From the sequence record NC_019708.1: a stretch of 37,595 bases of DNA; one strand, written 5' to 3'. Below the pieces are notes generated by a model. That model saw only the letters and a list, made by a program, of their open reading frames with translations. It did not search any database and had not been told where the DNA came from. Both the position numbers and the translations under genes were made by a program. This document shows, in pieces, positions 1 through 33,990 of this stretch; the first letter of the stretch is position 1, and every line of letters starts with the position of its first letter. The DNA is from Enterobacteria phage mEp235.

Positions 1-474
1 ATGTCTGGACCACCGAAAACCCCGACCCATCTACGTTTGGTAAGGGGTAACCCATCTAAACGCCCGATCAATGAGAACGAACCAAAACCCCCTTCAGGGG
101 TACCCACAACGCCGAAGCATTTCGACAAGCAGGGGAAATACTGGTTTAAACGGATGGCCGACGAGCTTGATGCTATCGGTGTGATGTCTCAGCTGGACGC
201 CAGAGCCCTTGAGCTGCTGGTTGAGGCTTATACCGAATACCGGCATCACTGCGACACGCTTGAAGTTGAGGGCTACACCTACCGGACCGAAACGCAGAGC
301 GGGGATGTGCTGATCAAGGCTCATCCCGCCGCCATCATGAAAGCTGATGCCTGGAAACGTCTGCGCGCCATGCTTGGTGAGTTCGGCATGACGCCAGCCA
401 GTCGCTCGAAAGTGAATGCAAAAGGCCCTGATGCGGTTGACCCGCTGGCCGAGTTTATGAAAGCGAGGGATTAA
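1..474 (+). CDS. terminase small subunit (P27-like family)
   Basis: 157-aa ORF directly upstream of and overlapping (TAATG) the large terminase; basic N-terminus typical of P27-family TerS; SD aggag lies at window end 37582-37586. Confidence 0.75.
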   Translation: MSGPPKTPTHLRLVRGNPSKRPINENEPKPPSGVPTTPKHFDKQGKYWFKRMADELDAIGVMSQLDARALELLVEAYTEYRHHCDTLEVEGYTYRTETQSGDVLIKAHPAAIMKADAWKRLRAMLGEFGMTPASRSKVNAKGPDAVDPLAEFMKARD

Positions 475-2210
475 TGGCTAAGGTTGCAGAAGGCATCCGC
501 TACGCCGAGAGGGTGGTGGCGGGGGAAATTATTGCCTGTGAGTATGTGCGCCTTGCCTGTCAGCGTTTCCTTGACGATCTGGCACACGGCGAAGAGCGCG
601 GTATTTTCTTCAGTGAGCCGCGCGCACAGCACATTCTGAATTTCTATAATTTTGTGCCTCACGTAAAAGGCGCGCTGGCAGGACAGCCTATTGAGCTGAT
701 GGACTGGCACGTTTTCATCCTGATTAATATTTTTGGTTTCGTTATCCCGCTGGTTAACGAAGAAACGGGAGAAACCGTCCTGCGTAATGACGGCAGCGGT
801 CGTCCAGTAATGGTTAGGCGCTTTCGTACAGCAGATGTTGAGGTAGCCCGTAAAAATGCCAAATCAACGCTTTGCTCCGGCGTGGGGCTTTATATGGCTG
901 GCGCCGACGGCGAGGGCGGTGCTGAGGTTTATTCCGCTGCAACCACCCGTGACCAGGCTCGAATTGTTTTTGAAGACGCGAAGAATATGGTCAAAAAGGC
1001 GAAAGCCACGCTTGGGCGGATCTTCGAATTCAACAAGCTCGCTATCTACCAGGAGCAAACGGCCTCCAAGTTCGAGCCATTATCATCAGATGCGAACAAC
1101 CTCGATGGTCTGAACATCCACTGCGCTATCGTAGACGAGCTGCATGCTCACAAAACCCGTGACGTCTGGGACGTTCTGGAGACGGCAACCGGTGCGCGTC
1201 TGCAATCGCTGCTTTTCGGTATCACCACCGCCGGTTTCAACAAAGAAGGCATCTGCTACGAATTGCGTGATTACGCCATCAAGGTGCTGCGTGGGCTGGT
1301 AAAAGACGATACGTTTTTTGCCATTATCTACACCTTAGATGAAGGTGACGATCCCTTTGATGAAAAAGTCTGGCAGAAGGCGAATCCGGGGCTGGGTATC
1401 TGTAAGCGCTGGGATGACCTGCGCCGCCTGGCTAAAAAGGCGAAAGAGCAAGTTTCGGCCAGAATTAACTTTTTCACCAAGCACATGAATATCTGGGTTA
1501 CCGCTGAGTCAGCCTGGATGGACATGATGAAATGGGAGAAATGTGAGTTTATCGCCCCGCAGCACGAACTTAAAACCTATCCCTCCTGGGTGGGCGTTGA
1601 CCTGTCAAACAAAATTGATATCTGTGCGGCCGCTAAAGTCTGGCGGGCGCCAGATGGCCACGTTCATGCGGATTTCAAATTCTGGCTACCGGAAGGACGC
1701 CTTGAGAAATGTTCACGCCAGATGGCAGAGCTCTATCGTAAGTGGGCCGGGATGGACAAGCTGATCCTTACCGACGGTGATGTAATCGACCATGCTCAGA
1801 TTAAGGAAGAGCTACAGCTGTGGGTTGCTGGCGAGAGCCTGAAAGAAATTGGCTTCGACCCGTGGAGTGCGACGCAGTTCAGCCTTGCGCTGGCAGAAGA
1901 AGGGTTGCCGCTGGTGGAAGTGCCGCAGACGGTTCGCAATTTCTCTGAGGCGATGAAAGAGGTCGAAGCGCTGGTATACGGTGGCCGCTTCCATCACAGC
2001 GATCACCCGGTGATGAACTGGATGATGTCCAACGTAACCGTCAAACCTGACCGGAACGAGAACATTTTCCCGAATAAGTCCACACCAGAGGCCAAAATTG
2101 ATGGCCCTGCGGCCTTGTTCACAGCAATGAGCCGCGTTCTGGTTAACGGTGGCAACGACCAGCAGGATCTCTCCGGATTCTTCAATAATCCCATCATGGT
2201 AGGTTTCTGA
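474..2210 (+). CDS. terminase large subunit
   Basis: 578-aa ORF, ATPase plus nuclease architecture, position between TerS and portal. Confidence 0.9.
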   Translation: MAKVAEGIRYAERVVAGEIIACEYVRLACQRFLDDLAHGEERGIFFSEPRAQHILNFYNFVPHVKGALAGQPIELMDWHVFILINIFGFVIPLVNEETGETVLRNDGSGRPVMVRRFRTADVEVARKNAKSTLCSGVGLYMAGADGEGGAEVYSAATTRDQARIVFEDAKNMVKKAKATLGRIFEFNKLAIYQEQTASKFEPLSSDANNLDGLNIHCAIVDELHAHKTRDVWDVLETATGARLQSLLFGITTAGFNKEGICYELRDYAIKVLRGLVKDDTFFAIIYTLDEGDDPFDEKVWQKANPGLGICKRWDDLRRLAKKAKEQVSARINFFTKHMNIWVTAESAWMDMMKWEKCEFIAPQHELKTYPSWVGVDLSNKIDICAAAKVWRAPDGHVHADFKFWLPEGRLEKCSRQMAELYRKWAGMDKLILTDGDVIDHAQIKEELQLWVAGESLKEIGFDPWSATQFSLALAEEGLPLVEVPQTVRNFSEAMKEVEALVYGGRFHHSDHPVMNWMMSNVTVKPDRNENIFPNKSTPEAKIDGPAALFTAMSRVLVNGGNDQQDLSGFFNNPIMVGF

Positions 2211-3514
2211 TGAAAAAAAACAAACAGCCAGGCAGGGTGAAAAGCGCTCTGCTTAACTGGCTTGGTGTGCCTATCAGCCTGACTACCGGCACGTTCTGGG
2301 AGGAATGGTTTGGTACCAGCAGCAGCGGAAAGGTGGTCACGGCCGATAAAGCCATCCAGCTATCGGCTGTATGGGCATGCGTAAGGCTGTTAAGCGAGTC
2401 TATTTCAACCCTTCCGCTGAAAATATACGTTCGACAGCCTGACGGTTCGCGTAAAGCGGCAACAGATCATCCGGCTTATTCGATACTGTGCCGCCGACCC
2501 AATTCAGAAATGACACCATCACGCTTTATGTTGATGGTGGTCGCCAGTATTTGCCTACGCGGTAATGCCTTTGTCGAGAAGCTGTTTATCGGCAATAAGC
2601 TGGTTTCTCTGGTGCCATTGATGCCCCAGAACATGGTAGTAAAGCGGCTGGATACCGGGAGGCTGGAATACACCTACACCGAGGACGGCAAAAAACGAGT
2701 TATTCCCGAAAAGAACCTGATGCACATCCGGGGATTTGGCCTTGATGGTGTCTGCGGCATGATGCCAATGATGACAGGTCGTGACGTGATCGGCGCGGCG
2801 ATGGCCGTCGAAGAATCCGCTGCAAAGATTTTCGAAAATGGCCTGCAAAGCTCCGGGTTTCTTTCAGCTGACGTGGCGCTTGATAAGGATCAAAGAGAGC
2901 GACTTCGGGGCTATATGCAGGCCTTTACCGGTTCTAAAAACGCCGGAAAAATTATGGTTCTTGAGGGCGGGCTGAAATATCAGAACGTCACTATGAACCC
3001 GGAAGCAGCGCAGATGCTTGAGTCGCGGTCGTTCAGCATCGAGGAAATCTGCAGATGGTTCCGCGTACCGCCATTTATGGTCGGCCACACATCGAAACAG
3101 AGCAGCTGGGCATCGAGTCTTGAGGGTATGAACCTCCAGTTCCTGACGCACACCCTGCGCCCCCTGCTGGTGAACATAGAGCAGGAAATAGGACGGTGCC
3201 TGCTGGACAGCGATGATGAGGTTTTCGCGGAGTTCTCTGTAGAAGGACTGCTGCGCGCCGACAGCGCGGGCCGTGCTGCGTACTATACCAGTGCGCTCCA
3301 GAATGGGTGGATGTCCCGCAATGACGTGCGCCGTCTTGAGAATATGCCACCGATTGAAGGGGGTGACATTTACACCGTTCAGCTCAACCTGACGCAACTG
3401 AAAAATCTCGAAAGCAGCAATCCTGCTGTTCAGGCTCTGGCCCTGAGAGAACTGCATAACCACGTATTCCCCGATATTTCCTTTGAACAATCTCCGCTGA
3501 AACAGGCCGCTTAG
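2210..3514 (+). CDS. portal protein (HK97-family)
   Basis: 434-aa ORF, start overlaps terL stop (ATGA), gene order terL-portal-protease-capsid. Confidence 0.85.
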   Translation: MKKNKQPGRVKSALLNWLGVPISLTTGTFWEEWFGTSSSGKVVTADKAIQLSAVWACVRLLSESISTLPLKIYVRQPDGSRKAATDHPAYSILCRRPNSEMTPSRFMLMVVASICLRGNAFVEKLFIGNKLVSLVPLMPQNMVVKRLDTGRLEYTYTEDGKKRVIPEKNLMHIRGFGLDGVCGMMPMMTGRDVIGAAMAVEESAAKIFENGLQSSGFLSADVALDKDQRERLRGYMQAFTGSKNAGKIMVLEGGLKYQNVTMNPEAAQMLESRSFSIEEICRWFRVPPFMVGHTSKQSSWASSLEGMNLQFLTHTLRPLLVNIEQEIGRCLLDSDDEVFAEFSVEGLLRADSAGRAAYYTSALQNGWMSRNDVRRLENMPPIEGGDIYTVQLNLTQLKNLESSNPAVQALALRELHNHVFPDISFEQSPLKQAA

Positions 3515-3527
3515 GAGCACTTTCCTG

Positions 3528-4382
3528 ATGAGCAAAAAACAACTTCCGGTAGCACCGGCGGGTCGCCCCTGCGCGCGCGTTACCTGTGAACCATTACCGT
3601 CCGCACTGGACCGCTGGGACGGCGGGATCAAAGCTGCGGCCACCGACGACAACAGTATTTCTGTTTTTGATGTGATCGGGCAGGACTACTGGGGTGAAGG
3701 CGTAACAGCCAAACGTATCGCCGGTGCGCTTCGGGCGATGAATGGCGCCGACGTCACGGTCAATATTAACTCCCCTGGCGGGGACATGTTCGAAGGCCTG
3801 GCCATCTACAACCTTCTGCGTGAATACGAAGGCCGTGTGACTGTGAAGGTGCTCGGTATTGCCGCCAGCGCCGCCTCGGTCATTGCGATGGCCGGGGATG
3901 AAATTCAGATCGGCCGTGGTGCCTTCCTGATGATCCACAACTGCTGGGTCTACGCGATGGGTAACCGCCATGACTTTGCGGAACTGGCACAGTCTCTTGA
4001 GCCGTTCGATACCGCTATGGCAGACATCTACGCGGCGCGTTCCGGCCTTGATATGGCAGCCGTTCAGAAACTGATGGACGCCGAGAGTTATATCGGTGGC
4101 AGTGACGCTGTGGCGAAGGGACTGGCAGACAGCCTGCTTTCTGCTGATGCAGTCAGTGATGGCGATGAATCACCTGCGGCCGCGATTCGCAAACTTGATG
4201 CGCTGCTGGCTAAAACCAACACCCCGCGCTCTGAGCGCAGAAAACTCATTAAAGCCTTATCCGGGAGCAAGCCAGGCGCTGCTTCTGACCAAAAAGGCAC
4301 GCCGAGCGCTGCCACCATCGAAAACGAAACCATTGACCGACTGGAAGCCGCACTCAGCGGCCTGAAAGCGGCTGCCCAGTAA
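3528..4382 (+). CDS. head maturation protease, ClpP-like serine protease
   Basis: 284-aa ORF with ClpP-like core (NSPGGDMFEGLAIYN, GIAASAAS) and Ala-rich C-terminal tail. Confidence 0.8.
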   Translation: MSKKQLPVAPAGRPCARVTCEPLPSALDRWDGGIKAAATDDNSISVFDVIGQDYWGEGVTAKRIAGALRAMNGADVTVNINSPGGDMFEGLAIYNLLREYEGRVTVKVLGIAASAASVIAMAGDEIQIGRGAFLMIHNCWVYAMGNRHDFAELAQSLEPFDTAMADIYAARSGLDMAAVQKLMDAESYIGGSDAVAKGLADSLLSADAVSDGDESPAAAIRKLDALLAKTNTPRSERRKLIKALSGSKPGAASDQKGTPSAATIENETIDRLEAALSGLKAAAQ

Positions 4383-4394
4383 AACGGAGATATT

Positions 4395-5615
4395 ATGTCT
4401 GATGTAAATGAGATCCTGAAAAAAGTCAGCGCCAGCATTGAAGAGGCGACCGGAAAATTCAACGCGAAAGCAGAAGACGCACTCAAAGAGGCGCAGAAGT
4501 CAGGCAGGCTGTCAGAAGAAACAAAAGCTGCCGTTGATAAAATGGCTTCTGAGTTCAATGCGCTGCGTGAAGCTGAAAAAACCCTGAAGGCCGCAATGGG
4601 CGAACTGGAGCAACATGTTGCCCAGATGCCACTGGCCAACGCTGCAAATGTGATCGAGACCGTTGGCCAGACAGTCATCAGCAGCGAAGCACTGAAAGCA
4701 TTCGCGGCAAGCGTGGAAGGCGGTAAGCGCGTCAGCGTACCGGTGAACGCCGCGCTTATTTCCACGGATGTCGTCACCGGCGTGGTTGAACCGCAGCGTC
4801 TGCCGGGTATCGACACCGCACCGAAACAGCGCCTTTTCATCCGCGATCTGATCGCGCCTGGCCGCACCTCAGCACCGGCCATCTTCTGGGTGCAGCAAAC
4901 CGGCTTCACCAATGCGGCGAAAGTTGTGCCGGAAGGCACCGCCAAGCCGTACAGCGATATCCAGTTCGCCACGCAGATCACGCCGGTCACCACCATCGCG
5001 CACATGTTCAAGGCGTCCAAACAGATTCTGGATGACTTCGCGCAGCTGCAGTCCACTATCGACGCCGAGATGCGTTACGGACTGAAGTATGTGGAAGAAC
5101 AGGAAATTCTCTTTGGCGACGGTACCGGTGCGCACCTGAAAGGCATCGTTCCGCAGGCCTCGGCATACGAGGCTGCGTTCGCCGTAGAACAACAGAACGG
5201 CATCGACGATCTGCGCCTCGCAATGCTGCAGGCTCAGCTGGCACGCTTCCCGGCTTCCGGCCACGTCCTGCACTTCATCGACTGGGCGAAGATTGAACTC
5301 ACCAAAGACACGCTGGGCCGCTATATCCTGGCGAACCCAGCGGCCCTGACTGGCCCTACCCTTTGGGGCCTGCCGGTGGTAGCAACCGAAGCCGCAGCAT
5401 TCCAGGGCAAGTTCCTGACCGGTGCATTCAACGCTGCGGCACAGCTGTTTGACCGTGAAGACGCCAACGTGGTGATCTCCACTGAGAACGCCGACGACTT
5501 TGAGAAAAACATGATCTCGATTCGCTGTGAAGAGCGTCTGGCCCTGGCGGTGAAACGCCCTGAGGCGTTCATCTACGGCTCCTTCACTGCGCCTTCAGCA
5601 GGTGGCGGCGCGTAA
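4395..5615 (+). CDS. major capsid protein, HK97 fold with N-terminal coiled-coil delta domain
   Basis: 406-aa ORF after protease; N-terminal ~100 aa helical and charged, as in HK97-type delta domains. Confidence 0.85.
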   Translation: MSDVNEILKKVSASIEEATGKFNAKAEDALKEAQKSGRLSEETKAAVDKMASEFNALREAEKTLKAAMGELEQHVAQMPLANAANVIETVGQTVISSEALKAFAASVEGGKRVSVPVNAALISTDVVTGVVEPQRLPGIDTAPKQRLFIRDLIAPGRTSAPAIFWVQQTGFTNAAKVVPEGTAKPYSDIQFATQITPVTTIAHMFKASKQILDDFAQLQSTIDAEMRYGLKYVEEQEILFGDGTGAHLKGIVPQASAYEAAFAVEQQNGIDDLRLAMLQAQLARFPASGHVLHFIDWAKIELTKDTLGRYILANPAALTGPTLWGLPVVATEAAAFQGKFLTGAFNAAAQLFDREDANVVISTENADDFEKNMISIRCEERLALAVKRPEAFIYGSFTAPSAGGGA

Positions 5616-5624
5616 TCCTTAACG

Positions 5625-5656
5625 GCGGCCTGCGGGCCGCTTTTCTTTTTTTCTTT
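5625..5656 (+). terminator. intrinsic terminator just after capsid gene
   Basis: GCGGCC-TGCG-GGCCGC hairpin followed by TTTTCTTTTTTTCTTT. Confidence 0.6.
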
Positions 5657-5668
5657 AAGGAGAAAGTC

Positions 5669-5869
5669 ATGAAGCTGATTGCTATCAAGCCCATCTACTT
5701 TGAAGGCAACGTGCTTACTGAAGGTACTGAGTTCGAAACGCTGGAACAGCATGGTCGCGAGCTCATCAAAAAAGGCTATGCGATGCTCGATGAATCAGAA
5801 AATCCTGCAACGCAGGAACACCAGCAGAAACAGCCGGAATTAAAAGCGGAAAATAAGGCGAAAAAATAA
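5669..5869 (+). CDS. hypothetical small acidic protein (head module)
   Basis: 66-aa ORF with SD aaggag, between capsid terminator and connector gene. Confidence 0.5.
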   Translation: MKLIAIKPIYFEGNVLTEGTEFETLEQHGRELIKKGYAMLDESENPATQEHQQKQPELKAENKAKK

Positions 5870-6195
5870 TGGTCGATCTTGATGTGGTGAAACAGCACTG
5901 CCGCATTGATACCGATTTTTCCGGAGACGATGCCCTGCTGACTTTATACACCGGCGCGGCGGAGCGTTACGTCCAGACATGGACAAGGCGAACGCTCTAT
6001 GAAAACCAAAACTCCCATGGCTACGCAGACGACCCGGACCCGATTCTACTGAATGATGATGTTAAAGCGGCCATGTTATTGCTGATAGGTCACTGGTATG
6101 CCAACAGAGAATCAGTTGCCGTCGGTCAGACCGTTGCAGAGGTCCCGTTTGCAGTTGAAGCGTTGCTGCAGCCGTATCGAATTTACGGGGTGTAA
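5869..6195 (+). CDS. head-tail connector (gp6-like)
   Basis: 108-aa ORF, overlapping start, position and size typical of HK97-like head-tail connector. Confidence 0.6.
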   Translation: MVDLDVVKQHCRIDTDFSGDDALLTLYTGAAERYVQTWTRRTLYENQNSHGYADDPDPILLNDDVKAAMLLLIGHWYANRESVAVGQTVAEVPFAVEALLQPYRIYGV

Positions 6196-6258
6196 TTATG
6201 TCTTGTTCTGGATGCGCGCAACGGCGCGAGTGGATAAAAAAGTGGGCAAAAATAGCTT

Positions 6259-6456
6259 ATGAACGAGCAACTGGTAAACGAACTGATAGCAGTGATACGG
6301 GAACAAATCACAGCGCAGAGGGAGCAGACGGAAGCGATAAGCCGTCTGGCTGAATCAAATATGGCGCTTTGCGATATCATTATCCAGTCGCTGGCTGGTG
6401 AACTAGATGAAACTGCAGAGCAACAAACCTATCTGAGCGGTAAACCCAGGGGGTAA
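6259..6456 (+). CDS. hypothetical small protein
   Basis: 65-aa helical ORF; an alternative 49-aa ORF in another frame starts at 6198, so the call is uncertain. Confidence 0.35.
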   Translation: MNEQLVNELIAVIREQITAQREQTEAISRLAESNMALCDIIIQSLAGELDETAEQQTYLSGKPRG

Positions 6457-6457
6457 C

Positions 6458-6790
6458 ATGCAGGCCGGGAAATTGCGCCACAGGATTACTCTGCAGGAGC
6501 CAGTAAAAGTGCAGAACCCGACAACGGGAGCCGTAATTAATACCTGGCGAGATGTTGCGACTGTCTGGGCCGAAGTTTCACCATTGTCAGCACGTGAATT
6601 TATTGCTGCGCAGGCTTCTCAGGGTGAAATAACCACCCGTATTGTTATTCGCTACCGTGCCGGAGTTACCAGAAAACATCGCATCTTGTTTCGTGGTGCT
6701 GTGTATAACATCCATGGTGTTCTGCCCGATCCAAAAAGCGGACGTGAATACCTGACGCTTCCCTGTTCTGAGGGTGTTAATGATGGCTGA
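6458..6790 (+). CDS. head closure / head-tail adaptor protein
   Basis: 110-aa ORF in conserved position of HK97-like head-tail joining genes. Confidence 0.6.
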   Translation: MQAGKLRHRITLQEPVKVQNPTTGAVINTWRDVATVWAEVSPLSAREFIAAQASQGEITTRIVIRYRAGVTRKHRILFRGAVYNIHGVLPDPKSGREYLTLPCSEGVNDG

Positions 6791-7322
6791 TAGTGTTGAG
6801 GTAAGTCTTACCGGGCTTGAATCACTTCTTGGGAAAATGGAGGCCGTATCAGAAGTCACCCGTAATAAAGCCGGTCGGTTTGCATTGCGTAAGGCGGCAA
6901 ACATTATAAGGGATCGGGCCAGAAGCAACGCGTCACGAGTTGATGATCCTCTGACTAAAGAAGCAATCCACAAAAATATCGTCGCCAGCTTCAGCAGCAA
7001 GCAATTCCGCAGGACAGGTGATCTGGCATTCCGTGTCGGGGTAATGGGCGGTGCCAGGCAGTATGCAAATACAAAGGCAAACGTCAGAAAAGGCAGAGCG
7101 GGTAAAACATACAAAACCTCAGGAGATAAAGGCAATCCAGGAGGAGATACCTGGTACTGGCGTTTTCTTGAGTTTGGTACTGAGCACACATCAGCGCGGC
7201 CTATCCTCCGACCTGCAATGAACGGCGTAGATAATGACGTGATTAATGTTTTTTCTACGGAAATGGGAAAGGCTATTGATCGCGCTATCAGGCTGGCCAC
7301 GAAGAAAGGAACCACTGCATGA
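6774..7322 (+). CDS. HK97 gp10-like tail component
   Basis: 182-aa ORF overlapping neighbours, conserved order. Confidence 0.55.
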   Translation: MLMMADSVEVSLTGLESLLGKMEAVSEVTRNKAGRFALRKAANIIRDRARSNASRVDDPLTKEAIHKNIVASFSSKQFRRTGDLAFRVGVMGGARQYANTKANVRKGRAGKTYKTSGDKGNPGGDTWYWRFLEFGTEHTSARPILRPAMNGVDNDVINVFSTEMGKAIDRAIRLATKKGTTA

Positions 7323-7684
7323 TTGCCCCTATTTTTTCTGTTTGCGCGTCGAGTCCTGAAGTCACTGACTTACTCGGAAGCAATCCGGTAAGAATTTATC
7401 CTTTCGGAATTCAGGACGACAACGTGGTCTATCCCTATGTGGTCTGGCAGAACATCACCGGTTCTCCAGAGAACTACATTGCCCAGCGCCCTGACGCAGA
7501 CTTTTTCACGCTGCAGGTGGATGCATATGCCGACACCGTGGATGAAGTGATTGCCGTGGCTACTGCGCTGCGGGATGCCATTGAGCCGCACGCGCATATC
7601 ACGCGCTGGGGCGGACAGGAAAGAGACCCCGAAACAAAACGCTATCGCTACTCATTCGATGTTGACTGGATAGTCACTCGATAA
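7319..7684 (+). CDS. tail completion protein-like
   Basis: 121-aa ORF overlapping the upstream gene, immediately before major tail protein gene. Confidence 0.5.
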   Translation: MIAPIFSVCASSPEVTDLLGSNPVRIYPFGIQDDNVVYPYVVWQNITGSPENYIAQRPDADFFTLQVDAYADTVDEVIAVATALRDAIEPHAHITRWGGQERDPETKRYRYSFDVDWIVTR

Positions 7685-7699
7685 ACGTATTATTCAACC

Positions 7700-7723
7700 A
7701 CCGGCCTTGAGCCGGTTTTTTTA
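7700..7723 (+). terminator. intrinsic terminator upstream of major tail gene
   Basis: ACCGGC-CTTGA-GCCGGT hairpin followed by seven T. Confidence 0.5.
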
Positions 7724-7738
7724 TGACCGGAGATAACA

Positions 7739-8239
7739 ATGTCTGTATTGACGCAAGGTACGCAGCTCTTTGTGCTCGTAAAAGGCAAGGTGAGCGAAGT
7801 TGAATGTATCACTGCATTTTCACCCGGCAGCAATCCGGCTGACCAGATTGAAGACACCTGTCTTTCTGAGCGCTTTGATCGCAGCTATAAGCGTGGTCTT
7901 CGAACGCCTGGCACAGCATCACTGACGCTTAACGCTGATCCTAAAAATACCAGCCACATCATGCTCTACAACCTGTCCATTTCGGACGACGAAAAGGATC
8001 AGGACCTGACCTTCGCGATTGGATGGTCAGACGGAACCGCATCGCCAACTGCGGCTGAAAATGGTACACCAGGTGCAGTCGATGGCCTGGTGCTACCTGA
8101 TAGCCGCACATGGTTCGTATTCAAAGGCTATGTGTCCGACTTCCCGTTTGATTTTGCAGCAAACACGGTTGTTTCTACTTCTGCATCTATCCAGCGCTCC
8201 GGCTCTGCTGTATGGGTGCCAAAAGTCGTGACCCCATAA
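7739..8239 (+). CDS. major tail (tube) protein
   Basis: 166-aa ORF immediately upstream of the chaperone frameshift pair and tape measure. Confidence 0.6.
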
Positions 8240-8277
8240 AATCAGGGCGGCAACGCCCTTATTAATCAGGATTAATA

Positions 8278-8763
8278 ATGAAATTAACACTTGATGCACT
8301 CAAGGAGTCCGGCGCGTTTACCGGTCGCCCGGTTGAGAAAGAAATCACCTGGACGCAAGGCGATAAAAAAATCACCGCGACCGTGTATGTTCGCCCGATG
8401 GGTTATCACACAGCAACGTCCGATGTGCTGGCTTTTGGTGGTAAGGTCGATGGTGTGGCAGGGCGTATCGCCGCATCCATCTGCGATGAACATGGTAAAC
8501 CCATCTTCACCCCGGCTGACATTACTGGTGAGGCAGATCCTGAACGTGGTGCACTGGATGGCGGCCTGACGGTAGCACTGCTTCTGGCCATTCAGGAAGT
8601 TAACGATCTGGGAAAGACTTCGAGCTCAGCGCCGAAGACGAATTCTGGTGCGAGCTCGTCCTCAACGGAATCGGAGGCAGAACAATCGCCGAAGCGCGGG
8701 AAGTCCTCTCATTCAAAGAGTCCCAACTCTGGGCAAAGTACCGGGAACGATACGGGAGTCTGA
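8278..8763 (+). CDS. tail assembly chaperone (lambda G-like)
   Basis: 161-aa ORF directly before tape measure, contains slippery heptamer. Confidence 0.75.
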   Translation: MKLTLDALKESGAFTGRPVEKEITWTQGDKKITATVYVRPMGYHTATSDVLAFGGKVDGVAGRIAASICDEHGKPIFTPADITGEADPERGALDGGLTVALLLAIQEVNDLGKTSSSAPKTNSGASSSSTESEAEQSPKRGKSSHSKSPNSGQSTGNDTGV

Positions 8764-8939
8764 ACCCTATGTTGCGGGTTGAGTGGGGTGCCGGGCTGGT
8801 GAGCAGCATGATAGCCAACGTTAACAGAGACCCCAAGCGCCCACCATTCAACCCGACCGATTTCACACTTCACTTTACCAAAGTCAAAGCTGCTGATGGA
8901 CCAATCTCGTTAGAGGAAGCCAGAGCCAGCTGGACATAA
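8278..8939 (+). CDS. tail assembly chaperone frameshift product (G-T-like fusion, -1 shift at 8610-8616)
   Basis: -1 frame is open from 8604 to TAA 8937-8939 and reads as plausible protein; slip site G GGA AAG is identical to the lambda G/GT site. Confidence 0.7.
8610..8616 (+). promoter_or_regulatory. programmed -1 ribosomal frameshift slippery heptamer GGGAAAG
   Basis: in-frame as G.GGA.AAG in the chaperone ORF. Confidence 0.7.
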
Positions 8940-8958
8940 TGCCGCCAACGGAGAGTTT

Positions 8959-11379
8959 ATGGCTTCCAAATCACTGGGCACGCTGACGATCGACCTGATT
9001 GCCAAAGTGGGCGGTTTTGTCTCAGGCCTCTCGCAGGCTGAGCGAGCTTCACAAAAATGGCGTAAGCAGGTAAAGGAGGATGCCGCTGCCGCTGCAGCTG
9101 CCATGACCGGATTCGCAACAGCAGTCGGGGCTGCAGCCATCGGAGCCGGAGTGGCGGGGTATAACCTGCTCAAAACCACTTCACGTCAGATTACCGAATC
9201 AGACCGCTGGGCAAAGTCACTTAACATGTCCACGCAGTCCCTGTTAGCCTGGCAATATGCTGCAGAAAAAGCAGGTGTTTCCGGCGATCAGATGGCCGAT
9301 ATCTTTAAAGATGTCGGAGACAAAATCGGTGATGCCGTTCTTAATAAATCTGGTGAGGCGGTCGGTGCGCTGGACGCTCTGGGTTTGTCGGCTAAGAAAC
9401 TGGCCGGAGAATCTCCCGACAAGCAACTCCTGGCTATCAGCGACGCACTGGAGAAAGTTAAGTCCAACGCCGAGAAGACTACCATCCTGGAGAGTCTGGG
9501 TAATGACCTGTCAAAGATGCTGCCGCTCCTGGACAATGGCAGTGAAAAGCTGCGTCAGTATATGGATGCCGCGAAGAAGTTTGGTGTGGCGCCCGATGAC
9601 GCAGATATTGAAAAGCTGGTCAGAGTCAACGCCCTGTTTGAGGATATGGAGACGCAGGTCAACGGCGTCAAAATTGAACTTGCTGCAGGGCTCGCCAGCG
9701 TAGATTTGAGTGGGCTCCAGAAGTCTATTGGAGATATGGGGGATGTATTTAAAGACCCGGATGTTATTCAGGGTCTGACTGATCTGGTTGGTGGGGTAGT
9801 GGACCTTGCCACCTGGCTGGTAAGGGTAGGGGCCGAGGCCGGAAAGCTGATAGACCAGTACAAAGGTGGGAGTTCGGTCGGCCTGAATGCCTCCATTCCA
9901 GAAATTGAACGGCGCATCAAGAACCTGAATGCAGATCTCGATGATAAAGGCATACTGGCGAGTTTCAACAGAATAGGTATGGACGTATCCGGTAAGGAGG
10001 CCGAAAGGGCTGAGCTCCAGAGGCGACTGGCCTTTTTGAGAAACTCCCAATCTACTCTACCGAAAATAAAACTGCCCGAGCCAGTCAAAACAAACTATAC
10101 CCTTGGCGCCGGGGAAACAAACGGTAAGCCGCAAAAAAATACCTCTGGTCAGAAACTGGATTCAGCGTTTAAAAGCGCTGAGCGCAGTTACATGCGTCAG
10201 ATTGAGCTGATCGATACCACCGGCAAAAAAACTGCTGTGGTGACCGAGCAGCAAAAACTGCAGTTCGATATAGCTGACGGCAAGTTGCAGGGGCTTAACG
10301 AAACCCAGAAGAAACGACTTGCGTCTCTGGCTCAGGAAGTTGATCGCCTTAATGCCGTCAAAAAAGCTAATGAAGAAAACGCGAAGGTAGCGGCGTTCGT
10401 GGCAAATCTGCAGGAGCAGAACGAGAATGCACGTGCAGATTTGGGCGTGGATATTCAGGGGGCCGGACTCGGTGACAAGCAGCGTGAAAGGCTGAGGGAA
10501 AGGCTGAGTATAGAGCGCAGTTATCTCGATCAGCAGCGCGATCTGCAAAAGCAGTATCAGTCAGGAGATATCAGCCAGACAGTTTATGACCGCGAAACCC
10601 AGGCATTAAAGGATGCACAAGCTGAGAGGCTGGGCATCCAGGAGGATTATTACAGTCAAATTGATGCGCTGCAATCTGACTGGGTGACTGGCGCCAGAGA
10701 CGGTCTCGCTGACTGGGTAGATGATTCAACTAACTATGCGACGCTGGCGGCGGACGCTATGAAAAGCGCGCTTTCCGGTATCAGCAGCAATATCGTCGAC
10801 ATGCTCAACGGCAATAAAGCGAGCTGGAAAGACTGGGGTGTCAGTGTTCTGAAAATCATCGAACAGGTGATGGTTAACATGATGATCGCCAATGCAGCCA
10901 GCTCGATAGGCTCATTGTTCGGTGGTGCCGCATCGTCTTCCGCCAGCAGCGGTACTGCGATTCAGTCCTACGGGGCGAGCCTGCAATTCAACGCCAAAGG
11001 CGGCGTTTACTCTTCTGCCGATCTCAGTCAGTACAGTAACTCTGTCGTCAGCTCTCCAACACTGTTTGCCTTTGCCAAAGGGGCCGGATTGATGGGGGAG
11101 GCTGGGCCGGAGGCTATTATGCCACTGACCCGCGCCGCTGACGGATCGCTGGGCGTGCGTGCTATGGGAATCTCAGGCTTAACACCGGGTGGTAGTAGTG
11201 CTCCTCAGGTCAGTATTCAGATTGATGGCAATGGGAATACCCAGACTCAGGCTAGCGGTGGATATGAGCAATTCGGGCGGGAGGTAGGTAGTTTTGTTGA
11301 TCGGCGATACCGCGAGTTGATAGGCCGTGACCTTTCACCCGGTGGCGCGGTCTGGAATCTGGCAAAAGGAGGGCGGTGA
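8959..11379 (+). CDS. tail tape measure protein
   Basis: 806-aa ORF, long helical repeats, Ala/Gly-rich N-terminal TM-like segment, position after chaperone. Confidence 0.9.
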   Translation: MASKSLGTLTIDLIAKVGGFVSGLSQAERASQKWRKQVKEDAAAAAAAMTGFATAVGAAAIGAGVAGYNLLKTTSRQITESDRWAKSLNMSTQSLLAWQYAAEKAGVSGDQMADIFKDVGDKIGDAVLNKSGEAVGALDALGLSAKKLAGESPDKQLLAISDALEKVKSNAEKTTILESLGNDLSKMLPLLDNGSEKLRQYMDAAKKFGVAPDDADIEKLVRVNALFEDMETQVNGVKIELAAGLASVDLSGLQKSIGDMGDVFKDPDVIQGLTDLVGGVVDLATWLVRVGAEAGKLIDQYKGGSSVGLNASIPEIERRIKNLNADLDDKGILASFNRIGMDVSGKEAERAELQRRLAFLRNSQSTLPKIKLPEPVKTNYTLGAGETNGKPQKNTSGQKLDSAFKSAERSYMRQIELIDTTGKKTAVVTEQQKLQFDIADGKLQGLNETQKKRLASLAQEVDRLNAVKKANEENAKVAAFVANLQEQNENARADLGVDIQGAGLGDKQRERLRERLSIERSYLDQQRDLQKQYQSGDISQTVYDRETQALKDAQAERLGIQEDYYSQIDALQSDWVTGARDGLADWVDDSTNYATLAADAMKSALSGISSNIVDMLNGNKASWKDWGVSVLKIIEQVMVNMMIANAASSIGSLFGGAASSSASSGTAIQSYGASLQFNAKGGVYSSADLSQYSNSVVSSPTLFAFAKGAGLMGEAGPEAIMPLTRAADGSLGVRAMGISGLTPGGSSAPQVSIQIDGNGNTQTQASGGYEQFGREVGSFVDRRYRELIGRDLSPGGAVWNLAKGGR

Positions 11380-11717
11380 TGGCTATAGAAACATTCAGCT
11401 GGTGTCCGCGCCCGAACGCGGAGCAGGAAGTGACATTCCGACGGCGCACCGCGCAGTTCGGTGACGGATATCAGCAGGTTTCCGGCGACGGGATTAATCC
11501 CCGCTCGCAGAAATGGACTCTCCAGTTTACCGGTACCGAAACGTATATCGGGGCGATTAAAGACTTTCTCGATCGCCATGCGGGCGTGACGGCGTTTCAG
11601 TGGCGCCCGCCGCTTGAGCCTCTCGGGCTTTACCGCTGCGACACCTACACACCAACGCCACTTGGTGCCGGGTTATTTAATCTTTCTGCAACTTTTGAAC
11701 AGGCCTACAAACCATGA
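11379..11717 (+). CDS. minor tail protein M-like
   Basis: ~112 aa, size and position as lambda M. Confidence 0.75.
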   Translation: MAIETFSWCPRPNAEQEVTFRRRTAQFGDGYQQVSGDGINPRSQKWTLQFTGTETYIGAIKDFLDRHAGVTAFQWRPPLEPLGLYRCDTYTPTPLGAGLFNLSATFEQAYKP

Positions 11718-12469
11718 GTCTTAACGCAGATTTTCAGAAGCTCGAACCTGGCGATGTGGTCAGGCTTTTCGAAGTGGATGGCACGGCATTTGGTACAGGT
11801 GATGTGCTGCGATTTCACAGCTACAGTCTTGCGCACTCTGAAGCCGAAATTATCGCTGCTGGCGGTGATGAAAATAAACTGCCAGCAAAATCTATCTGGT
11901 GGCAGGGTGAGGAGTATAAAGCGTGGCCATGCCAGATTGAGGGGATCGAAGCTTCAACCTCGGGAAGTAGTGCCCAGCCAAAACTTTCGGTTGCTAACCT
12001 CGACAGTTCGATCACCGCGCTTTGCCTGGCTTACGACGATATGCTGCAGGCGAAGGTGACGATACATGACACCCTTGGTAAGTATCTCGATGCGAGAAAC
12101 TTCACCGGAGGCAATCCGACAGCCGATCCGACCCAGGAGAAGCTGAAGGTTTTCTACATCGATGCAAAGAGCAGTGAAACCAATGAAGTTGTTGAGTTCA
12201 CACTATCCAGCCCTATGGATCTGCAGGGGCTGATGATACCTACCCGCCAGCTTCATTCTCTGTGCACATGGTGCATCCGGAACAAGTACCGAACCGGCGA
12301 CGGCTGCGACTATGCCGGTACGCGCTATTTCGACAAAAACAACAACCAGGTAAGCGATCCGTCACTGGATGAATGCAACGGAACGCTGACGGCCTGCAAA
12401 CTTCGGTTCGGTGAAAACAACGAACTCTCGTTTGGTGGGTTCCCGGGTACGTCGCTGATCAGGAGTTGA
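11714..12469 (+). CDS. minor tail protein L-like
   Basis: 251 aa, overlaps M stop; C-terminal Cys cluster as in lambda L. Confidence 0.8.
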   Translation: MSLNADFQKLEPGDVVRLFEVDGTAFGTGDVLRFHSYSLAHSEAEIIAAGGDENKLPAKSIWWQGEEYKAWPCQIEGIEASTSGSSAQPKLSVANLDSSITALCLAYDDMLQAKVTIHDTLGKYLDARNFTGGNPTADPTQEKLKVFYIDAKSSETNEVVEFTLSSPMDLQGLMIPTRQLHSLCTWCIRNKYRTGDGCDYAGTRYFDKNNNQVSDPSLDECNGTLTACKLRFGENNELSFGGFPGTSLIRS

Positions 12470-12470
12470 T

Positions 12471-13181
12471 ATGCGTCAGAAAACCATCGATGCGATTATG
12501 GCGCATGCTGCAGCTGAATATCCTCGTGAGTGTTGCGGCGTGGTGGCGCAAAAGAGCCGGGTAGAGAAATATTTTCCATGTAGTAACCTCGCTACCGAGC
12601 CGACAGAACATTTTCACCTGTCGCCAGAAGACTATGCAGCTGCTGAGGACTGGGGTACGGTGATCGCCATCGTTCACAGTCACCCTGACGCCACTACGCA
12701 GCCGAGCGAACTGGATAAAGCGCAATGCGACGCAACGCTTTTACCCTGGCATATTGTGAGCTGGCCGGAGGGGGATTTACGCACCATCCAGCCGCGCGGA
12801 GAACTGCCACTGCTGGAGCGTCCGTTTGTGCTTGGACACTTCGACTGCTGGGGGCTGGTAATGAGCTATTTCCGGCAGACCCACGGTATCGAGCTCCACG
12901 ATTACCGGGTTGATTATCCCTGGTGGGAAAACGACTATCCGGACAACTTCTATCAGGATTGCTGGTATGAGTGCGGATTCCGGGAATTCGACGGGCCACC
13001 GAAACCCGGCGATATGGTGATCATGCAGGTCCAGGCTGATAAGTGGAACCACGCTGGAATTCTGCTGGAGGGCAATATGCTGCTGCACCACCTGTACGGA
13101 CATCTGAGCCAACGCGTGCCGTATGGTGGCTACTGGCAGGAAAGGACGATGAAGATTCTTAGACATCAGAATTTTATTTAA
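12471..13181 (+). CDS. tail assembly protein K-like (MPN/JAMM plus NlpC/P60 domains)
   Basis: 236 aa; N-terminal HSHP motif and C-terminal Cys/His region typical of lambda K. Confidence 0.8.
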   Translation: MRQKTIDAIMAHAAAEYPRECCGVVAQKSRVEKYFPCSNLATEPTEHFHLSPEDYAAAEDWGTVIAIVHSHPDATTQPSELDKAQCDATLLPWHIVSWPEGDLRTIQPRGELPLLERPFVLGHFDCWGLVMSYFRQTHGIELHDYRVDYPWWENDYPDNFYQDCWYECGFREFDGPPKPGDMVIMQVQADKWNHAGILLEGNMLLHHLYGHLSQRVPYGGYWQERTMKILRHQNFI

Positions 13182-13228
13182 CAAACTGTCACTGATACTA
13201 TCGTGTAGTACACGGCAAGGAGAACGAT

Positions 13229-13453
13229 ATGTATACAGTTGGGTTTGGTTGGATCTTCGTCGGTATTTTTATTGGGTTAATTCTCTGGTTTTTCATCAAC
13301 CGCGCCAGCGTCAGAGCGAACAGGCAGGTTGAATTACTTGAGTCTATCGACCAGAAATTATCAAAAATAGTAGATCCAAACTTCGAGGCAAATAACAAAG
13401 ACCAGTCGAAAGAAAACTACCTTGAAGAAGCAAGGAAAAAAGCTGGGCTTTGA
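13229..13453 (+). CDS. small single-pass membrane protein inserted in the tail operon
   Basis: 74 aa; hydrophobic N-terminal helix then charged tail; own SD aaggag and own terminator. Confidence 0.5.
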   Translation: MYTVGFGWIFVGIFIGLILWFFINRASVRANRQVELLESIDQKLSKIVDPNFEANNKDQSKENYLEEARKKAGL

Positions 13454-13467
13454 GAGCGTAAATTAAC

Positions 13468-13492
13468 AAACCACCTACGGGTGGTTTTTTTA
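13468..13492 (+). terminator. intrinsic terminator after the membrane-protein gene
   Basis: AAACCACC-TACG-GGTGG followed by seven T. Confidence 0.7.
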
Positions 13493-13502
13493 TGGGGGCA
13501 GC

Positions 13503-14111
13503 ATGCAAGAGGTAATGACAAGAATTGAGCTAAGTGGCGTGCTAGCTAAGACATATGGAAGGGTTCATCACCGTCTTGTTCGCACTACTGCTGAAGCCAT
13601 TAATGCACTCGCGAAAACCATCAATGGATTCGAGAAATTCTTAAACACAAGCAAAGCCCGAGGGCTGACGTATGCCGTTTATAGAGATAAAAAGAATATT
13701 GGCGTTGATGATCTCGGCTTTCCCGTCACCGGCGAAGTGATCCGGATTGTCCCTGTAGTAATAGGGAGTAAAAAGGCTGGTCTTTTGCAGACGATCTTGG
13801 GGGCCGTGCTTATTACTGCTGCTGTGTTGACTGGCCCCGGCGGTATTGGCGCTGCTTTCGCTGCTGGTGGATTGACGGGGTTTGCTGCTGCCACTGGTGC
13901 CTCGTTGGTCCTCGGTGGGGTTATTCAGCTGCTTTCACCGCAGCCATCAGGCATAGCCAGTAAACAAAGCGCAGATAACCGTGCATCGTATGCGTTTGGC
14001 GGGGTAACCAACACTGCAGCGCAAGGCTACCCGGTGCCTCTGCTTTATGGTAAGCGTCGAATCGGCGGAGCGATTATTTCTGCCGGAATTTATGTCGAAG
14101 ATCAGCAGTAG
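13503..14111 (+). CDS. tail assembly protein I-like
   Basis: 202 aa with Gly/Ala-rich hydrophobic segment as in lambda I. Confidence 0.75.
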   Translation: MQEVMTRIELSGVLAKTYGRVHHRLVRTTAEAINALAKTINGFEKFLNTSKARGLTYAVYRDKKNIGVDDLGFPVTGEVIRIVPVVIGSKKAGLLQTILGAVLITAAVLTGPGGIGAAFAAGGLTGFAAATGASLVLGGVIQLLSPQPSGIASKQSADNRASYAFGGVTNTAAQGYPVPLLYGKRRIGGAIISAGIYVEDQQ

Positions 14112-14128
14112 ATAACTAACCTTTTTTC

Positions 14129-14153
14129 TGGCCACCTTCGGGTGGCTTTTTTA
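14129..14153 (+). terminator. intrinsic terminator between I and J
   Basis: GCCACC-TTCG-GGTGGC with UUCG tetraloop followed by six T. Confidence 0.65.
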
Positions 14154-14163
14154 TGGGCGCAAT

Positions 14164-17715: not shown

Positions 17716-17716
17716 A

Positions 17717-18019
17717 ATGGCTTATGGAATACAGACCTGGGATGCTTCAGGAAAACCCAACAACTATGGCATCAAACCCGTTTCCGTCGTTGGGCGAATA
17801 CAGCTGGCTGCCGGGCAAACCTCAGGCAGCTGGTCTTTTACGGTGCCCTCAGGAATGAAAGTTGGTTTTGTTCTTTCACTTGATGAAGGAGGTAACAGCG
17901 TAGGGCGGCGCATTGTCGCGTCAGGGAGCACAATAACCGTAAGCGCTGCATCTTCTGTAGGTCTGGGTAATTATCCGGCCTCAAAGTGTGAAGTGGTCGT
18001 TTTCATGGAGAAAGCATAA
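17717..18019 (+). CDS. hypothetical protein downstream of J
   Basis: 100 aa; shares a WD-x-SGK motif with the next ORF. Confidence 0.5.
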   Translation: MAYGIQTWDASGKPNNYGIKPVSVVGRIQLAAGQTSGSWSFTVPSGMKVGFVLSLDEGGNSVGRRIVASGSTITVSAASSVGLGNYPASKCEVVVFMEKA

Positions 18020-18657: not shown

Positions 18658-18764
18658 TTGTTTTGAGCGATCAATAACAAATAATTTATCTATCTAATCA
18701 ATTATACCCATCGATTATGTATTGGTATCTTCGAAGCTACTGAATACCTCTGGATACTATCAAA

Positions 18765-18998
18765 ATGAAAAGGCTAATTATCTGCATAGCGGGCGCTTTA
18801 ATGCTGTCTGGTTGCGCTGGTGTACTTGAGAAACAGAAACCGATTTGCAGCGGCACGGCATATATGGGTGGCCATGAGAATACCGTTATGATTTACGCCG
18901 TTCGAAAGCAAAACAACCAGACGCAATACCGGGCCGGATATCCCTTTAACTGGCGCTGGGTAAGTGCGAACACATTCACAAGCACGACATGTAAATAA
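18765..18998 (+). CDS. small lipoprotein, possible Cor-like superinfection exclusion protein
   Basis: 77 aa with signal peptide and lipobox LSGC; located after the J-type tail genes where cor sits in phi80/N15-type phages. Confidence 0.5.
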   Translation: MKRLIICIAGALMLSGCAGVLEKQKPICSGTAYMGGHENTVMIYAVRKQNNQTQYRAGYPFNWRWVSANTFTSTTCK

Positions 18999-33049: not shown

Positions 33050-33234
33050 ACGCCACAATTCAAACGATACCAGAGCTTCTTATCCAGACACGAGGCAATC
33101 AGACCGAAGTGGCAAGGATGCTTTCCTGCGCAAGAGGAACAGTGCTCAAGTACAACCGAGACAGTAAAGGCGAGCGTCACGTAATAGTTAACGGCGTCCT
33201 GATGGTCAAACAGGGAAAAAGGGGAAGGCCATGA
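33046..33234 (+). CDS. NinH-like small DNA-binding protein
   Basis: 62 aa; GNQTEVARxLxCxRGTVxKY resembles lambda NinH. Confidence 0.55.
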   Translation: MNATIQTIPELLIQTRGNQTEVARMLSCARGTVLKYNRDSKGERHVIVNGVLMVKQGKRGRP

Positions 33235-33854
33235 GACTCGAAAGCGTAGCTAAATTTCATTCGCCAAAAAGCCCGATGATGAGCGACTCACCACGGGCTA
33301 CGGCTTCCGACTCTCTTTCCGGTACTGATGTGATGGCTGCTATGGGGATGGCGCAATCACAAGCCGGATTCGGAATGGCTGCATTCTGCGGTAAGCATGA
33401 ACTCAGCCAGAACGACAAACAAAAGGCTATCAACTATCTGATGCAATTTGCACACAAGGTATCGGGGAAATACCGTGGTGTGGCAAAGCTTGAAGGAAAT
33501 ACTAAGGCAAAGGTACTGCAAGTGCTCGCAACATTCGCTTATGCGGATTATTGCCGTAGTGCCGCGACGCCGGGGGCAAGATGCAGAGATTGCCACGGTA
33601 CAGGCCGTGCGGTTGATATAGCCAAAACGGAGCAGTGGGGGAGAGTTGTTGAGAAAGAGTGCGGAAGATGCAAAGGTGTCGGCTATTCAAGAATGCCAGC
33701 AAGCGCCGCATATCGCGCTGTAACGATGCTAATCCCAAACCTTACTCAACCCACCTGGTCACGCACTGTTAAGCCGCTGTATGACGCTCTGGTGGTGCAA
33801 TGCCACAAAGAAGAGTCAATCGCAGACAACATTTTGAATGCGGTCACACGTTAG
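33231..33854 (+). CDS. Q: late antiterminator Q
   Basis: 207 aa, appears near-identical to lambda Q as recalled. Confidence 0.9.
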   Translation: MRLESVAKFHSPKSPMMSDSPRATASDSLSGTDVMAAMGMAQSQAGFGMAAFCGKHELSQNDKQKAINYLMQFAHKVSGKYRGVAKLEGNTKAKVLQVLATFAYADYCRSAATPGARCRDCHGTGRAVDIAKTEQWGRVVEKECGRCKGVGYSRMPASAAYRAVTMLIPNLTQPTWSRTVKPLYDALVVQCHKEESIADNILNAVTR

Positions 33855-33896: not shown

Positions 33897-33990
33897 TTGA
33901 CTTTTTGAATAAAGTTGGGTAAATTTGACTCAACGATGGATAAATGCACTCGTTAAATAAAGCCCTGAGTTAATAGCTCGGGGCTTTTTG
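33897..33990 (+). promoter_or_regulatory. late promoter pR' with qut region and tR' terminator (6S RNA unit)
   Basis: -35 TTGACT 33897-33902, -10 TAAATT 33920-33925, hairpin 33961-33985 followed by TTTTT, as in lambda. Confidence 0.7.

Follow-up and report, generated by a model that had tools for sequence, protein, structure and literature searches.

A putative Rho-independent terminator closing the major capsid gene of phage mEp235, with a hairpin conserved more widely than its U-tract

The window analysed here is the whole stretch of 37,595 nucleotides from the genome of Enterobacteria phage mEp235 (NC_019708.1). It is 100% identical over the query to record PV340540.1, in which the same DNA is circularly permuted (position 4395 here corresponds to 21326 in the record). 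The gene content is that of a temperate lambdoid phage: int/xis, N, cI, cro, cII, O, a helicase and nin genes are present, and the late part comprises Q, S-R-Rz, terminase, portal, a ClpP-type prohead protease, an HK97-fold capsid, head-tail joining genes and lambda-like tail genes. The order is Q-S-R-Rz-terminase-portal-protease-capsid, with everything from S through the tail fibres on the + strand. The capsid gene sits in a portal / ClpP-type protease / capsid / head-tail adaptor module and is separated from the following small gene, which encodes a DUF7210 protein, by a gap of 53 nt (5616-5668). The features of this junction are listed below.

4395..5615, + strand: major capsid gene, HK97 fold, 406 aa (PF05065, E 8.6e-55; 100% identical to the mEp235 'major capsid protein')
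5613-5615, + strand: capsid stop codon, TAA
5616..5623, + strand: spacer of 8 nt, UCCUUAAC, from stop codon to hairpin
5624..5641, + strand: terminator-type hairpin (-14.6 kcal/mol in isolation; top of the terminator scans; conserved with covariation), composed of the 5' arm GGCGGCC (5624-5630), the loop UGCG (5631-5634) and the 3' arm GGCCGCU (5635-5641)
5642..5656, + strand: U-rich tract, UUUCUUUUUUUCUUU, 13 U in 15 nt
5657..5671, + strand: Shine-Dalgarno sequence AAGGAG (5657-5662), 6-nt spacer and ATG at 5669
5669..5869, + strand: downstream small gene, DUF7210, 66 aa (PF23843, E 4.5e-10)

An earlier, sequence-only reading of this DNA had proposed an intrinsic terminator right after the major capsid gene and had placed it at 5616-5668. 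The observation is borne out, as is each part of its interpretation that sequence can address. The coordinates are exactly the gap between the capsid gene and the next open reading frame, and the identity given to the upstream gene is confirmed by the PF05065 match, the HK97 fold and the head-module context. Read from the TAA, the gap consists of uccuuaac, GGCGGCC-UGCG-GGCCGCU, UUUCUUUUUUUCUUU, AAGGAG and aaaguc, followed by the AUG. The hairpin that was said to follow the stop codon directly does so after the 8-nt spacer, and the GC-rich hairpin with a long U-tract proved to be a stem of 7 bp (six G-C pairs and one G-U) with a UNCG-type tetraloop closed by a C-G pair, followed by the tract with 13 U in 15 nt; counted from the last G-C pair, the first 9 nt include 8 U (UUUUCUUUU). 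The sequence hallmarks expected of an intrinsic terminator (a G+C stem of roughly 5-14 bp, a loop of 3-8 nt and a U-tract of about 7-9 nt adjoining the stem) are all present on the transcribed strand, and the hairpin lies in non-coding sequence between two + strand genes of the late operon. On the - strand, the tail of the hairpin is poor in U (GUUAAGGAUU), and the structure does not resemble a terminator. A terminating polymerase would be expected to release its transcript within the U-rich tract at 5642-5656, and the DUF7210 gene is the first whose expression termination at 5624-5656 would lower.

A consensus scan of positions 1-20000 ranked the site first among 32 terminator-like sites. When all 37.6 kb were scanned on both strands, a strict setting (dG <= -12, at least 8 U in 10) returned 3 sites where 0.025 were expected (sd 0.16), and a medium setting (dG <= -10, at least 7 U) returned 10 where 0.38 were expected, the expectation in each case being taken from 40 dinucleotide-preserving block shuffles; both counts are well above what chance would give. 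By RNA folding, the hairpin has a pair probability of 0.83-0.97 depending on context. Folding of 5600-5675 gave an alternative in which the 3' arm pairs with GGCGGC of the last capsid codons; in the contexts 5560-5641, 5500-5641, 5560-5700 and 5500-5760 (82 to 261 nt) this alternative reached at most 0.08, against a mean pair probability of 0.83-0.92 for the canonical hairpin, indicating that it is an artefact of the segment's cut point. Given its composition, the 76-nt segment is unremarkable in total folding energy (z = -0.96), and so the evidence for the element lies in the hairpin-plus-U-tract pattern and in its conservation, not in bulk folding energy. A search of the entire 37.6-kb sequence against the Rfam families gave no match at the gathering score.

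Other terminator-like hairpins were seen in intergenic gaps of the late operon: at 7700-7716, before the major tail gene; at 13469-13486; at 14130-14147, before a J-like gene; at 19016-19037, after cor; and at 35486-35506, after Rz.

The sequence-only reading had also assumed that the site would be read through under Q antitermination. The window contains the components on which this premise depends:

33231..33854, + strand: lambda-type antiterminator Q gene, 207 aa (PF03589, E 1.3e-57; 'antitermination protein Q' in PV340540.1)
33897..33987, + strand: late promoter pR', qut/pause region and tR' hairpin (~97% identical to lambda 44480-44610)
33897-33902 and 33920-33925, + strand: pR' -35 (TTGACT) and -10 (TAAATT) elements
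33959-33987, + strand: tR' hairpin (-18.6 kcal/mol, U-rich tail)

The presence of a lambda-type Q, of pR'/qut and of tR' places the capsid-end hairpin, ~9.3 kb downstream of pR' along a path through cos, within a late operon under Q antitermination. Identity to lambda is ~97% over a stretch comprising the 3' end of Q and pR'/qut, making read-through by Q-modified polymerase plausible. A consensus scan for sigma-70-like promoters on the + strand found none in 1-20000, and the essential head-tail and tail genes lie downstream of the site with no recognisable promoter between. Since processive antitermination is known for lambda Q and essential genes follow, we infer that Q-modified polymerase mostly passes the site.

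We then turned to the conservation of the element among relatives of the mEp235 capsid gene. The sample comprised 160 fetched loci with 2-kb flanks (80 from viral contigs and 80 from bacterial genomes) together with phage records, of which 161 loci were scoreable; the loci span Enterobacterales, Pseudomonas and Halomonas, and their capsids are 72-100% identical to that of mEp235 at the amino acid level. A perfect-stem hairpin with dG <= -10 was found shortly 3' of the capsid stop codon in 158/161 relatives, against 5.7% of 919 windows drawn at random from these loci and searched with the same hairpin finder. The spacer between stop codon and hairpin has a median of 8 nt over the 161 relatives, many of which are closely related.

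The sequence of the stem varies among these relatives with its pairing kept: GGCGGCC/GGCCGCY predominates in most Enterobacterales, GGGCCGCC/GGCGGCCC occurs in Pseudomonas and GGCAUGGGGGC/GCCCCCAUGCU in Halomonas, and there are single compensated transitions within the stem (e.g. AGCAGCC/GGCUGCU). Among 106 distinct loops, 59 are of the UNCG type. When 92 distinct hairpins are aligned, pairing is seen in 96% of cells, a percentage that is partly circular because the alignment was made from hairpins already detected, the independent statistic being the 98% against 5.7%; double-sided changes affect 4/7 pairs (54 cells). The covariation score of the alignment is 0.287, compared with 0.145 after shuffling (0/500 shuffles reach 0.287), and slid controls score much lower. 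Within the first 7 pairs, G·U/U·G combinations outnumber A·C/C·A by 35:2 among the relatives, which argues for a constraint on the sense-strand RNA rather than on a DNA palindrome or on the opposite strand.

These observations bear on the idea that the palindrome acts at the level of DNA, as a recombination or module-boundary site, or is there by chance, which we regard as highly improbable. The alignment of mEp235 with its relative, phage Fraca, does diverge exactly at the 3' edge of the hairpin, forming a mosaic junction, and one E. coli prophage match stops at 5643, at the same edge. However, mosaic phages would be expected to have junctions at intergenic boundaries in any case, and both the strand-specific excess of G·U over A·C and the replacement of stem sequences with pairing kept speak against a DNA-level role. 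Chance is excluded by the 98% versus 5.7% comparison and by the shuffle controls.

The U-tract behaves differently. The number of U in the 9 nt after the stem ranges from 1 to 8 across the relatives, as it does within the Enterobacterales, where loci with other downstream alleles have a median of 5. In the 21 Pseudomonas prophages the median is 2 U in 9 nt, the hairpin adjoining the Shine-Dalgarno site (1-3 nt), and relatives in both Pseudomonas and Halomonas lack a U-tract behind the hairpin. Where the downstream gene is of the mEp235-type allele, 7-8 U are present in 55/55 loci, and 6-8 U are also found with many unrelated downstream genes, e.g. in Proteus, Providencia, Xenorhabdus, Pantoea, Citrobacter and Enterobacter. 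The capsid of Fraca is 98.8% identical to that of mEp235 and its hairpin is the same, but the run of U behind the hairpin is just UUU, after which comes CACAGGUGGG (its tail 3' of the hairpin reads UUUCACAGGUGGGAAA); in Pantoea phage AH07 the hairpin is followed by UUUCCGGGAG. The conserved core is thus the hairpin, with the terminator-defining tail being lineage-specific. Because the U-tract is absent or short in many relatives, termination cannot be the function that conserves the hairpin family-wide. Moreover, the U-tract travels with the mEp235-type allele and the Fraca junction falls at the hairpin's 3' edge, and on these grounds the tract may be as much part of the downstream translation-initiation region as of a terminator. 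The pair formed by mEp235 and Fraca would amount to a natural experiment, in which the same capsid and hairpin occur with and without the U-tract.

This pattern raises the question of whether the hairpin is only a barrier that protects or processes the 3' end of the mRNA, a stabiliser-type 'retroregulator', with a U-tract that is not selected for termination and instead forms a single-stranded leader of the downstream gene, either S1-binding or RNase E-accessible. Such a role would account for a hairpin present in 158/161 relatives whatever their U content, including the Pseudomonas and Halomonas loci without a U-tract, for the co-segregation of the tract with the downstream allele and for the recombination junction at the hairpin's 3' edge; in addition, Q-modified polymerase is expected to ignore a terminator. 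Against it, 6-8 of the 9 nt adjoining the stem are U in many independent lineages of the Enterobacterales whose downstream genes differ, and HK97 and lambda have U-rich tails too, suggesting that the U-tract has been repeatedly maintained in enteric hosts. Furthermore, 8 U in 9 nt beside a hairpin of -14.6 kcal/mol would be a near-certain stop for unmodified polymerase, whatever was selected. We consider it rather unlikely that protection and a leader function, taken jointly, are all that the element provides.

A mainly translational role, in which the hairpin and a helix between the U-tract and the Shine-Dalgarno sequence control initiation at the DUF7210 gene (by sequestering the Shine-Dalgarno sequence or by uncoupling it from capsid translation), is very unlikely. 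In read-through RNA, 5642-5650 is predicted to pair with 5657-5665, leaving the Shine-Dalgarno sequence with an unpaired probability of <0.1; in one relative (L029) the corresponding helix is the strongest local structure, at -12.1 kcal/mol, and in the Pseudomonas relatives the hairpin ends 1-3 nt 5' of the Shine-Dalgarno sequence. Yet the mEp235 helix, made of A-U and G-U pairs, is weak (-4.7 kcal/mol) and a near-automatic result of placing a pyrimidine tract beside a purine-rich Shine-Dalgarno sequence; it is absent in Fraca, in Pantoea AH07 and in many others that have the hairpin, and in HK97 a hairpin also precedes a different downstream gene, the head-tail adaptor.

It is hardly credible that the hairpin is a recoding stimulator that, through -1 frameshifting or stop-codon read-through, yields a C-terminally extended minor form of the capsid protein, as in T7 10B or Lactobacillus phage A2. 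The distance of 8 nt from the stop codon is typical of frameshift stimulators, and in mEp235 the -1 frame, which holds the downstream open reading frame, stays open as far back as 5564, a position within the capsid gene. Nevertheless, no slippery heptamer of the form X XXY YYZ precedes the stop codon (GGU GGC GGC GCG UAA), and in-frame read-through would add only 18 residues, ending at 5670-5672. The downstream open reading frame has evenly distributed frame offsets across 116 distinct relatives (40/39/37), and the alternative frame is closed before the capsid open reading frame in 77. On the basis of the missing slippery site, the even offsets and the closed frames, a frameshift or read-through stimulator was rejected.

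Taken together, the data suggest that the element is probably a Rho-independent terminator-type RNA element of canonical build, closing the capsid gene on its 3' side within a single Q-antiterminated late operon. Polymerase lacking the Q modification, whether from spurious initiation, in the prophage state or before Q has accumulated, would stop in the U-tract at about 5648-5652. Q-modified polymerase arriving from pR' would mostly continue, although a minority may stop and produce a step down in mRNA after the capsid gene. In transcripts ending or cut just downstream, the hairpin would block 3'-to-5' exonucleases, and the portal-protease-capsid message would then be longer-lived than the message for the minor proteins downstream. 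In read-through RNA the U-tract could fold onto the Shine-Dalgarno site of the next gene, modestly damping its translation. The net outcome of these steps would be an increase in capsid protein relative to the minor head and neck proteins encoded downstream, together with insulation of the late operon from transcription that lacks Q licence.

Insulation might be the whole of its function, the element being purely a safeguard against polymerase without Q, in the prophage or from spurious or moron promoters, with no measurable effect on the ratio of lytic products. The several further terminator-like hairpins in gaps of the late operon fit a general policing role of this kind, which is among the possible roles given for such terminators in PMC8022706. 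Nonetheless, the hairpin is kept at this boundary in relatives without a U-tract, hence unable to terminate, and insulation would leave unexplained why such an element recurs right after the most abundant structural gene in HK97, lambda and P22/L; we judge this explanation unlikely. T7, too, has an element right after its most abundant structural gene, which counts in the same direction.

With regard to the terminator-type element proposed here, two components can be graded separately. In mEp235 the U-tract is full, and real termination of unmodified polymerase is accordingly very likely from the sequence. As to the conserved function, we weight stabilisation of the mRNA at least as heavily as termination, since the hairpin persists without a U-tract in many relatives; what is found is a stable stem-loop 3' of a cistron, with selection at the RNA level irrespective of the U-tract, as is characteristic of stabiliser hairpins. 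The sequence-only reading had offered two possibilities, that the hairpin could raise the stability of the capsid mRNA or that termination could set stoichiometry relative to downstream genes. The conservation of the hairpin, but not of the U-tract, among relatives favours the first of these as the conserved function.

A possible extension of this, which we put forward tentatively, is that the hairpin alone serves as a 3' protection or processing signal for capsid mRNA at the boundary of HK97-type capsid genes, with head modules of this type keeping it across Enterobacterales, Pseudomonas, Halomonas and beyond while the U-tract is gained and lost by lineage. Such gain and loss would perhaps be tied to whether a processive antiterminator drives the late operon. 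Were this to be the case, differential mRNA decay, not termination, would be the general means of boosting capsid in late operons with a single promoter. For lambda, Sampson, Hendrix, Huang and Casjens reportedly described in PNAS in 1988 that differences in the output of late proteins come mainly from translation initiation; in that case the contribution of a transcriptional step may be small.

Taken alone, the finding is of little importance: the element is of an ordinary, already recognised kind, its activity is putative, and mEp235 follows the usual lambdoid/HK97 layout, in which a terminator-type hairpin closes the procapsid gene block of a Q-driven late operon. A modestly new point is that evolution seems to have kept the hairpin, and not the entire terminator, at these capsid gene ends. 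Looking forward, a near-universal, covarying hairpin combined with an optional U-tract and with close natural variants that differ in the tail only offers an inexpensive means of telling termination and mRNA stabilisation apart by experiment. PV340540.1 lists CDS features only, which makes the site useful for annotation, and it is also relevant to the engineering of expression cassettes into mEp235.

The closest precedents are found in the records of HK97 and mEp234. HK97 has a 'putative terminator' annotated at 5192-5213 of NC_002167, between gene 5 (major head) and gene 6, and mEp234 a 'rho-independent terminator' at 5143-5164 of NC_019715, after the major head gene; the HK97 RefSeq record also annotates putative terminators before and after the major tail gene. 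Both sites resemble that of mEp235 in their position, after an HK97-fold capsid gene and before the head-tail adaptor region of a lambdoid late operon, and in their make-up, with a short G+C stem, a stable tetraloop and U residues running into the next ribosome-binding site. The sequences themselves, GGGCGGG-GAAA-CCCGCCC-UUUU in HK97/mEp234 and GGCGGCC-UGCG-GGCCGCU in mEp235, are unrelated, and the capsid of HK97/mEp234 is only ~39% identical to that of mEp235. Only 4 U follow the stem in HK97, whereas mEp235 has 13 U in 15 nt, and mEp235, unlike HK97/mEp234, has the extra small DUF7210 gene after the site. A GC hairpin after the capsid gene is also present in a D3-like Pseudomonas phage, in Vibrio phage Her and in a Stenotrophomonas phage.

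In lambda, the gap between E and FI (NC_001416, ~7163-7180) contains AUGGCCC-UUCG-GGGCCAU, 2 nt after the E stop codon. As in mEp235, this hairpin belongs to a Q/pR' system and has a 7-bp G+C stem, a C(UUCG)G tetraloop and a pyrimidine-rich stretch that leads into a Shine-Dalgarno sequence. Its tail, UGUUUCUCU, differs in being only moderately U-rich, which would make it a poor terminator. The hairpin is unannotated in the lambda record, and the lambda capsid gene has no detectable DNA similarity to that of mEp235.

Two systems outside the HK97-like and lambda group are also comparable. T7 has a leaky hairpin-plus-U terminator, Tphi, right after gene 10 (major capsid), the activity of which is experimentally established; the downstream mRNA, for tail and internal proteins, is less abundant than capsid mRNA, which is stabilised by the 3' hairpin. 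Tphi acts on the single-subunit RNA polymerase of the phage, whereas the mEp235 site would face Q-modified host polymerase. In malEFG, REP elements provide an intergenic stem-loop after the most expressed cistron, shielding the upstream RNA from 3' exonucleases and giving differential expression. Stabilisers of the REP type resemble those relatives of mEp235 that have the hairpin without a U-tract. REP elements are, however, repeated host sequences with their own consensus, and the mEp235 hairpin is single-copy, phage-borne and equipped with a full U-tract.

Of the 26 papers that mention mEp235, the 15 listed include none on its transcription, and for experimental 3'-end mapping at capsid-proximal terminators of lambdoid or HK97-like phages the literature gave only a discussion of phages L and P22 and general statements on leaky terminators. 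In P22/L, a Rho-independent terminator is predicted after the coat-protein module, in a late operon with a single promoter under processive antitermination (PMC8022706). The authors consider two roles for it, partial termination that lowers downstream mRNA or the stopping of transcription that has not been antiterminated, and state that the roles 'are not known' (PMC8022706). By this description P22/L is like mEp235 in having a terminator after the coat module for which the same two roles are proposed, and unlike it in having a P22-type coat protein and head module and, in phage L, a type-3 (phage 21-like) Q. More generally, leaky terminators are widely used by phages to tune expression, T7 being cited for the balancing of its expression via inefficient terminators (PMC9163698).

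A mosaic recombination junction (window 5641-5643; Fraca locus L002 4246-4262) falls at the exact 3' edge of the terminator-type hairpin that follows the major capsid gene (the capsid-3' hairpin, 5624-5641). The capsid gene together with the hairpin is common to mEp235, phage Fraca and one E. coli prophage (NZ_CP054407.1), while both relatives diverge from mEp235 beginning with the first bases of the adjoining U-rich tail and as far as the 5' half of the small downstream DUF7210 gene. Beyond this divergent stretch near-identity between Fraca and mEp235 resumes.

The DUF7210 gene follows the capsid gene in each of three phages.

Positions of the DUF7210 gene
5669-5869, mEp235 (window)
4263-4511, Fraca locus L002
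3257-3544, Pantoea phage AH07 locus L003

Its product combines a conserved N-terminal domain of 38 residues with a highly variable low-complexity tail. In mEp235 this tail is short and rich in lysine and glutamine; in Fraca it consists of Glu-Gln repeats (encoded by (GCAGGAACAGCA)n) and in AH07 of Glu-Pro repeats (encoded by (GCCAGA)n). The capsid family is common in prophages of Pantoea, Erwinia, Enterobacter-group genera, Proteus/Providencia and Pseudomonas; within E. coli the region surrounding the hairpin (5480-5780) is rare, being present in 4 of 5426 complete genomes.

Five further terminator-like hairpins with U tails were found on the plus strand, in the gaps between late-operon genes, and two strong terminator motifs were found on the minus strand. 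One of the latter occupies the position of an oop-RNA-like terminator (28244-28217). A search of the whole 37.6-kb genome against Rfam returned no family at the gathering score.

Terminator-like features elsewhere in the genome
7700-7716, plus strand, hairpin with U tail, 5' of the major tail gene
13469-13486, plus strand, hairpin with U tail, gap between gp20 and the I-like gene; palindromic on both strands
14130-14147, plus strand, hairpin with U tail, 5' of the J-like gene
19016-19037, plus strand, hairpin with U tail, 3' of cor
35486-35506, plus strand, hairpin with U tail, 3' of Rz
28244-28217, minus strand, strong motif, antisense inside the 3' end of cII
26941-26924, minus strand, strong motif, directly 3' of cI

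The matching public record, PV340540.1, is 4 bases longer than the window (37599 versus 37595). It labels the gene at 3528-4382 "major head subunit protein (Mup34, T)". Because the gene matches the Clp protease family (PF00574, E 4.3e-25) and occupies the place expected of a prohead protease, this label is probably a misannotation.

HK97 lacks a gene at the position of the mEp235 DUF7210 gene, and a putative terminator is annotated 5' of its major tail gene, the counterpart position of the mEp235 hairpin at 7700-7716. At window 33825-33987, identity to lambda is ∼97% over the Q 3' end, pR' and the qut/pause region. The mEp235 leader from the pause site to tR' is much shorter than the 6S RNA region of lambda, and the tR' hairpin differs in sequence.
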